A stretch of 64,000 bases of DNA, taken from an uncultured Bacilli bacterium. Lineage in GTDB: Bacteria; Bacillota_I; Bacilli_A; RF39; UBA660. A model generated the notes under the pieces. The model was not told the DNA's origin, searched no databases, and saw only the letters and a program-made list of their open reading frames with translations. Where the stretch lies: positions 2,565-66,564 of the forward strand of contig CAKOJJ010000003.1 in NCBI GenBank assembly GCA_934089275.1, read 5' to 3'. Of this stretch, positions 9,505 to 10,155 are shown in pieces. The position numbers and the translations under genes were made by a program. Position 1 is the stretch's first letter. Every line of letters begins with the position of its first letter.

Positions 9505-10155
9505 CTTTACACACAATAAAAATAAAGATTATATATTACAACAAAAGTGTAGTATAATAATTTTGTACAGTATATAATTTGACAAAATAACGTAAACCCT
9601 TCAAAACGACTTGAAAATCGGGGGGGGTATTATAAAATAAAAATGTAGAAAGTAGGAAAGAATATGAAAAAGAAAAGTATGCTTATAGTAGCAATATTAC
9701 TGATGTCAATTGGCTTTGCAGCAGTATCAACAACATTAGTAATAAATGGAAATGCGAATGTAAGCGAAAACAATGAAGATTTCAGTGTAATCTTCACAGC
9801 TGCAAGTATAGATGGAAAGGATGTATATAGTTCAGTAATAGATGATACAAAGAAGATAATTACTTTTGAAACAAGTGAATTAAAAACACTTAATCAAACT
9901 TCAATACTAACATATGAAGTAACAAACAATTCAAGTAATTATGATGCAGAAGTAAGTGTAACATGTGTACCAAAAGACGGAACAACAGCAAAATATACAA
10001 GTATTAAAAATAAGTTAGATAATGATGTAACGAAAGTATTAGCAAAAAGTTCAGTAAATGGAACATTAACAATAACATTAGATAAAACATCAACAGAAGA
10101 AGTAAGTGAAGAATATACATGCAAGTTAGAATTCAATGCCGTAGAAAGAGATACA
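9505..10155 (+). repeat. Copy 1 of a ~650-bp dispersed repeat (promoter, 5'UTR, signal peptide and N-terminal domain)
   Basis: Hand alignment with 57522..58158. It is near-identical from AATTTGACAAAATAACG through GCCGTAGAAAGAGATACA, with weaker similarity about 70 nt further upstream. Confidence 0.85.
9611..9638 (+). promoter_or_regulatory. Putative sigmaA promoter with a G8 tract in the spacer
   Basis: TTGAAA (9611-16), a 16-nt spacer containing G8 (9620-27), then TAAAAT (9633-38). Conserved in the paralog at 57614..57641. Confidence 0.5.

Follow-up and report, generated by a model that had tools for sequence, protein, structure and literature searches.

A run of eight G residues upstream of a putative surface-protein gene is probably the hypermutable core of a σ70-type promoter cassette, CTTGAAAATC-Gn-TATTATAAAATAAAA, in which slippage would vary transcription gene by gene. 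The run lies in a stretch of 64 000 nucleotides (64 kb; hereafter the window) from an uncultured Bacilli bacterium. In a clade of human-gut Bacilli that are related to 'Firmicutes bacterium CAG:582' and have not been cultured, the cassette is predicted to drive dozens of genes per genome. Most of these genes belong to one putative secreted or surface family, whose members share an N-terminal leader and a probable Ig-like domain and differ in their C-terminal domains, some of them lectin-like. In the proposed mechanism, slipped-strand mispairing at replication would add or remove one G, the spacing between the -35 and -10 hexamers would change, and transcription of each gene would shift independently, heritably and reversibly, so that many combinations of surface proteins would coexist within one clone. 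We infer both slippage as the mutational mechanism and an effect of tract length on expression.

The sequence GGGGGGGG was read directly in the window at 9620–9627, upstream of paralog A, and again at 57623–57630, upstream of paralog B, with 36 nt between the end of the tract and the ATG in both copies (ATG at 9664 and 57667). The window is very AT-rich (GC content of about 23–36% by 2 kb block; 16% G and 10% C), and in a homopolymer census of the 64 kb the two G8 tracts were the only runs of G or C longer than five; G5 occurred twice and the longest C run was four. Matches to G7 numbered four, compared with 0.28 expected, and none of 100 dinucleotide shuffles reached four. The preliminary description had placed the G8 run between TTGAAA and -10 candidates upstream of paralog A, had reported the same run at the same position upstream of paralog B and no comparable G run elsewhere in the window, and had given a spacing of 16 nt to TAAAAT. 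These readings hold, with the spacer at 9617–9632. Coordinates are given in Table 1.

Table 1. Coordinates of features in the window.
Feature	Position	Strand	Basis or remarks
Terminator-like hairpin and T-run after the upstream P-type ATPase gene	9443–9474	+	
Remnant of tract-less family promoter	9500–9558	+	GTAAAC-TTTACACA palindrome at 9500–9513, TATAAT at 9553–9558; comparison with CAG:582-like genomes
33 bp promoter cassette of paralog A, CTTGAAAATC-G8-TATTATAAAATAAAA	9610–9642	+	Near-invariant among 47 independent copies; read directly
-35 hexamer TTGAAA	9611–9616	+	TTGCAA, TTGACA or TTGATA in other copies
G8 homopolymer, proposed slipped-strand tract in the spacer	9620–9627	+	Sequence reading, census, G6–G9 polymorphism at homologous/orthologous cassettes
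-10 hexamer TAAAAT (best assignment)	9633–9638	+	16 nt from -35 at G8; 5'UTR-anchored alignment
Shine–Dalgarno-like AGGA	9654–9657	+	6 nt before the ATG of paralog A; putative, from sequence reading
Paralog A, 282 aa	9664–10512	+	N-terminal signal/anchor peptide, shared β-rich N-domain of ~165 aa, Cys-rich C-terminus
VirB4/TraG-like ATPase	15915–17708		
M23 peptidase with lysozyme domain	17726–19834		
NlpC/P60 hydrolase	20851–22077		
VirD4-type coupling protein	22749–25205		
HerA-like ATPase	25285–26733	Opposite to the conjugation cluster	
Hairpin and T-run after the ORF upstream of paralog B	57389–57419	+	15-nt arms, 93% complementary; likely terminator
Promoter cassette of paralog B	57613–57645	+	TTGAAA 57614–57619, G8 57623–57630, TAAAAT 57636–57641
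Paralog B, 501 aa	57667–59172	+	N-domain as in A; different C-terminal domain related to DUF6273

Two further observations concern other parts of the window. A conjugation/type IV secretion cluster at 12278–25205, directly after infC-rpmI-rplT, is likely to be an integrated conjugative element or a remnant of one. A small ORF at 61748–62209, downstream of murG-ftsQ-queH, encodes a pseudopilin/competence-type protein with a prepilin-type N-terminal methylation motif (MKKNGFTLVE...; PF07963, E = 1e-6).

The information content of the cassette is about 1.3–2.0 bits per position over 47 independent copies, and the sequence on either side diverges. The TTGAAA/TAAAAT pair at the G8 tract is the second-best σ70-like match in the region. 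The TATTATAAAAT stretch contains overlapping -10 candidates (TATTAT, TATAAA and TAAAAT), which blur the spacing argument. For alignment of the -10 elements, sequences were anchored on the common 5'UTR AGAATGGTGTGTG; some cassette-driven genes share the 5'UTR AGAATGGTGTGTGTAAAA-ATG with tract-less members of the family. The TAAAAT of the cassette ends 7 nt before the anchor and the TATAAT or TATACT of tract-less promoters ends 6 nt before it. In one sub-family TATACT is found at the same -10 position, and the bases between the tract and the hexamer vary there. By this alignment TAAAAT is the best -10 assignment and, since it aligns with the TATAAT/TATACT of tract-less promoters, the cassette would sit at the core-promoter position. 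With TAAAAT as the -10 hexamer, G6, G7, G8 and G9 give spacers of 14, 15, 16 and 17 nt, respectively. The flanking hexamers, the alignment with tract-less paralogs and the upstream terminators together place the tract between -35 and -10 in silico. Conservation of the spacer bases that flank the tract (ATC and TATTA) is not usual in a simple promoter and could be due to gene conversion or to the binding of a factor.

Two other promoter assignments were rejected. The TTGACA at 9579–9584 has no -10 at 16–18 nt and is not conserved in other copies. The consensus for SigB is GTTTAA-N12–14-GGGTAT, and for a SigB-type promoter that used the GGGTAT at the tract end the expected -35 position is not conserved. 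A variant cassette, TTGACAAAATC-G8-TATTATAGACT, precedes a different gene (MNIEF...) in L283 (at 2507) and L326 (at 1285); its -35 is moved 2 nt upstream, which gives an 18-nt spacer at G8. If the variant is active, cassette types would not share one 'best' tract length.

Terminator-like hairpins open both intergenic regions, so transcription of A and B must start inside them. Because of the hairpin after the P-type ATPase gene paralog A needs its own promoter, and the hairpin at 57389–57419 likely isolates the promoter of paralog B. Remnants of an older promoter persist upstream of both A and B, and the TATAAT at 9553 in A may permit tract-independent read-through. In more distant family members the tract-less promoter consists of a TGTAAA-N3-TTTACA palindrome followed, after about 45 nt, by TGTATAAT or TATACT; palindromic promoters of this kind lie about 60–100 nt upstream of family genes at L060, L062–L064, L069, L072, L076 and L079. 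The palindrome may serve as the operator for a regulator specific to this family; of it, cassette promoters retain just the TGTAAA half-site, some 15 nt before the -35 hexamer. The 5'UTR-anchored comparison with tract-less promoters indicates that the cassette replaced a core promoter. The genes for P0061, P0064 and P0074 are second in operons whose first gene has a tract-less promoter, and no tract data came from these loci. A separate difference between samples was seen in the 5'UTR of a 367-aa family gene upstream of murG: L236/L237 read ...gtgtgtgtaatttATG and L238 reads ...gtgtgtgttttATG, beside a (GT)n-like GGTGTGTGTG ribosome-binding region. This is a small indel near the start codon of a gene with a tract-less promoter.

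The first ~164 residues of paralogs A and B are 94% identical, and divergence is complete thereafter. At the DNA level the stretch of identity reaches from about 88 nt before the ATG (~9576 and ~57579) to about 500 nt inside the ORFs. No members of the family other than A and B were found in the window. Searches of Pfam and NCBIfam with A and B gave no significant family match, a sequence search of the PDB gave no related entry and an exact look-up of paralog B gave no record. A sub-threshold match to Ig_3 was obtained for the N-domain, and a close homologue of B (P0006) passes the DUF6273 threshold. An AF2 model of B was unusable, with an overall pLDDT of 37 from a shallow alignment (38 sequences, ~80% identity); this low-confidence model contains β-strands at residues 60–160, where the pLDDT is ~70. 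The leader (MKKKSMLIVAILLMSIGFAAV) combines a basic n-region with a hydrophobic core. No lipobox Cys was found in it (MKKKSMLIVAILLMSIGFAAVSTT), and the proteins are not classed as lipoproteins.

More than 5400 proteins match B with E ≤ 1e-5. The N-domain alone matches 892 clusters (50% identity), always at the N-terminus, in proteins of up to 1917 aa. Sampled relatives carry Listeria-Bacteroides repeats (Flg_new), DUF6273 and Laminin_G_3 (a ConA-like lectin domain). In phage receptor-binding proteins, models of DUF6273 are C-type-lectin-like (PMC10743442). An extracytoplasmic, ligand-binding role for the family is a reasonable inference from these domains and the leader.

Species-representative genomes were searched with the shared N-domain, which gave 79 loci in eight metagenome-assembled genomes (MAGs) of uncultured Bacilli (the Hadza gut MAGs CAKOPW, CAKOKD, CAKOKS, CAKONX, CAKOTA and CAKOWE, together with HGM10793 and 'Firmicutes bacterium CAG:582'). 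In the two closest genomes most family genes are preceded by cTTGAAAATC-Gn-TATTATAAAATAAAA. Over the 79 protein-anchored loci (~450 kb in the eight MAGs), 47 of the 49 distinct runs of six or more G lie inside the cassette. The flanks of the tract are near-invariant for 10 nt on the left and 15 nt on the right, and the outer flanks diverge. As lower bounds, CAKOPW has at least 30 cassettes and CAKOKD at least 39. A DNA-pattern scan located many further cassettes before other families (MKKTT... proteins and a membrane protein of ~200 aa), and copies were also found in CAG:582 and in 'uncultured Tenericutes bacterium UMGS1611'. The scale given in the preliminary description was therefore too small: the cassette precedes dozens of genes per genome, not two. 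For metagenomes the pattern TTGAAAATCN{4,14}TATTATAAAAT was not specific enough: of the 120 loci, roughly three in four were AT-rich sequences from unrelated environments that matched by chance, and G content was used to filter them out.

The unrelated family of ~200 aa has an N-terminal membrane anchor (MRRVVNKKSMLIIGVILIV...) and is cassette-driven in L018 (at 4683), L162, L281, L293 and L329. In CAG:582 it has the poly-G cassette, and the main family there uses tract-less promoters. One of the two runs of six or more G outside the cassette is a G7 in L031 (1544–1550), which lies where a ribosome-binding site would be expected, about 10 nt before an ATG (aaaataaGGGGGGGatagaataaATG), and could be a translational repeat switch.

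Tract lengths were compared in 80 distinct cassettes from the genomes, the metagenomes and the window. G8 was found in 57, G7 in seven (one of which reads AT+G8, the flanking C being lost), G6 in three and G9 in one, and the tract was interrupted in 12. Uninterrupted G6–G9 tracts thus make up 68 of the 80; a homopolymer of ~7 or more is long enough to slip, and both G8 tracts of the window have such a length. Examples of interrupted tracts are GGGGTGGG, GGGGAGGAG and GAGGAGGGGG, the first of which is one allele at a further locus. The interrupted ('locked') tracts (L028, L030, L033, L094/L117, L228/L229 and L013 at 4515) are mostly of 9–10 nt, which gives spacers of 17–18 nt; pure tracts are mostly of eight. 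The interrupted tracts of 9–10 nt may be longer tracts stabilized by point mutations, or 17–18 nt may be the expressed state.

Length differences between close strains with constant flanks were found at several loci. The gene for P0103 (505 aa) lies downstream of ffh in 22 contigs, eight of which were retrieved. These eight come from different samples and encode an identical protein; the tract is G8 in five and G9 in three, and the 130 upstream bases are identical except for tract length. An alignment of 2.7 kb at this locus has 23 variable columns (22 SNPs and one indel), and the sole indel is the tract. G9 occurs on three SNP haplotypes, and L206 (G9, 27× coverage) and L210 (G8) share one haplotype. 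With G9 on several haplotypes, one of which also carries G8, the length change must have recurred. At a second locus, downstream of a GH31 gene, the tract is G9 in the CAKOKD MAG (L027) and G8 in L234/L235, with identical flanks. Among syntenic groups, one contains G7, G8 and interrupted tracts and another contains G8 and G6. The G7/G8/G9 heterogeneity among strains that had been proposed as a check is thus present, as G8/G9 at these two loci and as G6/G7 at syntenic loci. A different kind of change was seen in L137 (metagenome contig VOFC01006213.1), where a promoter tract of G6 is accompanied by two extra A residues in an A-run in codons 2–4 (ATGAAGAAGAAAAAAGT compared with ATGAAGAAGAAAAGT), resulting in a frameshift; this could reflect an assembly error, a pseudogene or a further repeat switch, located in the coding region.

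The same data were weighed against other explanations. It is possible, though we think it unlikely, that G8 is a fixed-length part of a specialized promoter, as a regulator site or spacer requirement, and that G6, G7 and G9 are neutral or mildly harmful noise. About 80% of the 80 cassettes have exactly G8, the spacer bases ATC and TATTA are conserved as strongly as the hexamers, and the conserved upstream TGTAAA box may point to a regulator of the family. However, at 25% GC an uninterrupted G8 should decay fast unless uninterruptedness is itself selected, and G8 and G9 alternate repeatedly across haplotypes at one locus. Interrupted tracts with lengths of 6–10 nt also persist before intact genes, from which it follows that no single length or sequence is strictly required. 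A length distribution this narrow, with ~80% G8, would be expected equally of a switch and of a tract kept at a single functional length. A quite improbable explanation is that transcription starts upstream (e.g. from the TATAAT at 9553) and that the tract lies in the transcribed leader, acting at the RNA level through structure, attenuation or translation. A remnant promoter does lie 60–110 nt upstream in A and B, and a weak CCC...GGG pairing can be drawn, but the upstream CCC and the old promoter are missing from most cassette copies, in which the hexamers are near-invariant. The RNA fold has z = -0.04, with 91 of 200 shuffles folding as well, and no Rfam match was found in 9440–9720 even at E ≤ 1; at the gathering score, the only Rfam match in the window was a tRNA elsewhere. 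A structured RNA or riboswitch was rejected on the fold and the Rfam result.

Sequencing or assembly errors in homopolymers are a very improbable source of the length differences. Some variant contigs do have low coverage (3.6× to 6.8×), but G9 is present in a 185 kb contig at 27× and in a 428 kb MAG contig, and G8 was seen at 39× at the same locus as the 27× G9 contig. Variants recur across independent studies and assemblers, and it is these coverage values and this recurrence that make assembly error unlikely; moreover, the 2.7 kb alignment of eight contigs has no second indel. Invertible promoters are common in gut bacteria, and inversion or recombination of promoter DNA could in principle switch expression, leaving the G run incidental. 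We give this explanation hardly any weight: A and B have no common inverted repeats around the cassette (only weak, AT-rich, locus-specific pairs), on which ground an inverton was rejected, and every cassette found beside a family gene points toward that gene. The phase-variation reading has come through each of its sequence-testable parts as predicted, in tract position and in heterogeneity among strains, and the RNA and inverton alternatives failed.

General spacer rules would give an activity ranking of G9 ≥ G8 > G7 >> G6. Promoters with 16-nt spacers normally work, so the gain or loss of one G may just modulate output, and volume control is as likely as on/off switching. A more comprehensive reading, which we offer tentatively and do not favour as a whole, is that gene conversion or promoter replacement carried the 33 bp cassette to at least 30–40 loci per genome in uncultured, small-genome human-gut Bacilli, that the cassette displaced a palindrome-regulated promoter (the remnant at A and B) and that it drives several unrelated families of secreted proteins. 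G8 (16 nt) would be poised low and G9 (17 nt) high, and each cell would express a sparse, heritable and shuffling subset.

Several known systems invite comparison. In porA of Neisseria meningitidis, tract length reportedly sets the distance between -35 and -10 and hence the level of transcription (van der Ende and colleagues, 1995). The porA poly-G tract lies between -35 and -10, with an optimum of 17 nt (PMC7864442). The likeness is that of a G tract in the promoter spacer of a surface-protein gene, here a putative one; porA differs in being a single locus of ~9–11 G in a Gram-negative pathogen, whereas here one identical cassette with a mode of G8 precedes at least 30–40 genes of a Firmicutes-type commensal. 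In Treponema pallidum, the genes of a paralogous family of putative surface proteins (tprE/G/J/F/I/L) are preceded by poly-G tracts of 7–12, and at tp0126 the tract is between -35 and -10 and optimal at a 17-nt spacing (PMC7864442). Tract lengths there vary within and among isolates, one length being dominant, e.g. ~81% G9 at tprL (PMC7864442). Tracts with proven effects in T. pallidum have a narrow modal length distribution (PMC7864442), which resembles the dominance of G8 here. The proteins and the promoter sequence are unrelated, however, and at tprE/G/J/L the tract is just upstream of the start site and not in a clean spacer; those systems rest on reporter and fragment-length evidence and the present cassette on sequence.

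In Mycoplasma hyorhinis the vlp genes have poly-A in the promoter spacer, and Vmm/Vmc of M. mycoides/M. capricolum have TA repeats in the spacer. Those systems share with the present one a variable multigene family, here of putative surface proteins, in a small, AT-rich Bacilli/Mollicutes genome in which each gene has its own spacer repeat; output there varies combinatorially and here would do so. The Mycoplasma proteins are lipoproteins with internal repeats, whereas here the leader has no lipobox Cys, the repeat is poly-G in a genome of 25% GC and more genes are involved. The comparison with Mycoplasma surface antigens drawn in the preliminary description thus stands for the mechanism and falls for the lipoprotein type, and the likeness is limited to mechanism because the present proteins are not lipoproteins. 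Campylobacter jejuni reportedly has ~30 poly-G tracts per genome, which are almost the sole long G/C runs in an AT-rich genome and are predominantly G8–G11. The phasome of C. jejuni is alike in having ~30 poly-G tracts in an AT-rich genome, but its tracts are mostly coding and act by frameshift, whereas the one promoter cassette described here would act on transcription. By analogy, the proposed mechanism matches porA and tp0126 and, in its logic, also Mycoplasma vlp and the Campylobacter phasome. Neither the proteins nor the promoter sequence is related to those of any of these systems. The notable features are the scale (30–40 cassettes per genome), the uncultured commensal Firmicute host and the indicated replacement of an ordinary promoter. 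Literature searches for RF39 or CAG-582 together with phase variation gave nothing relevant on the lineage or the protein family.

Studies of phase variation in gut bacteria have concentrated on the invertible promoters of Bacteroides, and most known cases of repeat-driven switching come from pathogens such as Neisseria, Haemophilus, Campylobacter, Treponema and Mycoplasma. To our knowledge, repeat-based phase variation has hardly been described in commensal Firmicutes. If the proposed switch is real, the tract length at each locus would be a simple marker for in-host adaptation that could be read from existing metagenomic reads, assemblies showing just the majority tract length. Abundant uncultured gut Bacilli would then run dozens of independent poly-G switches before a large and diversifying surface or secreted family, which would point to strong fluctuating selection on the surface from immunity, phage or host glycans. 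If the more comprehensive reading were also true, these commensal Firmicutes would possess a phasome on the scale of those of Neisseria and Mycoplasma.
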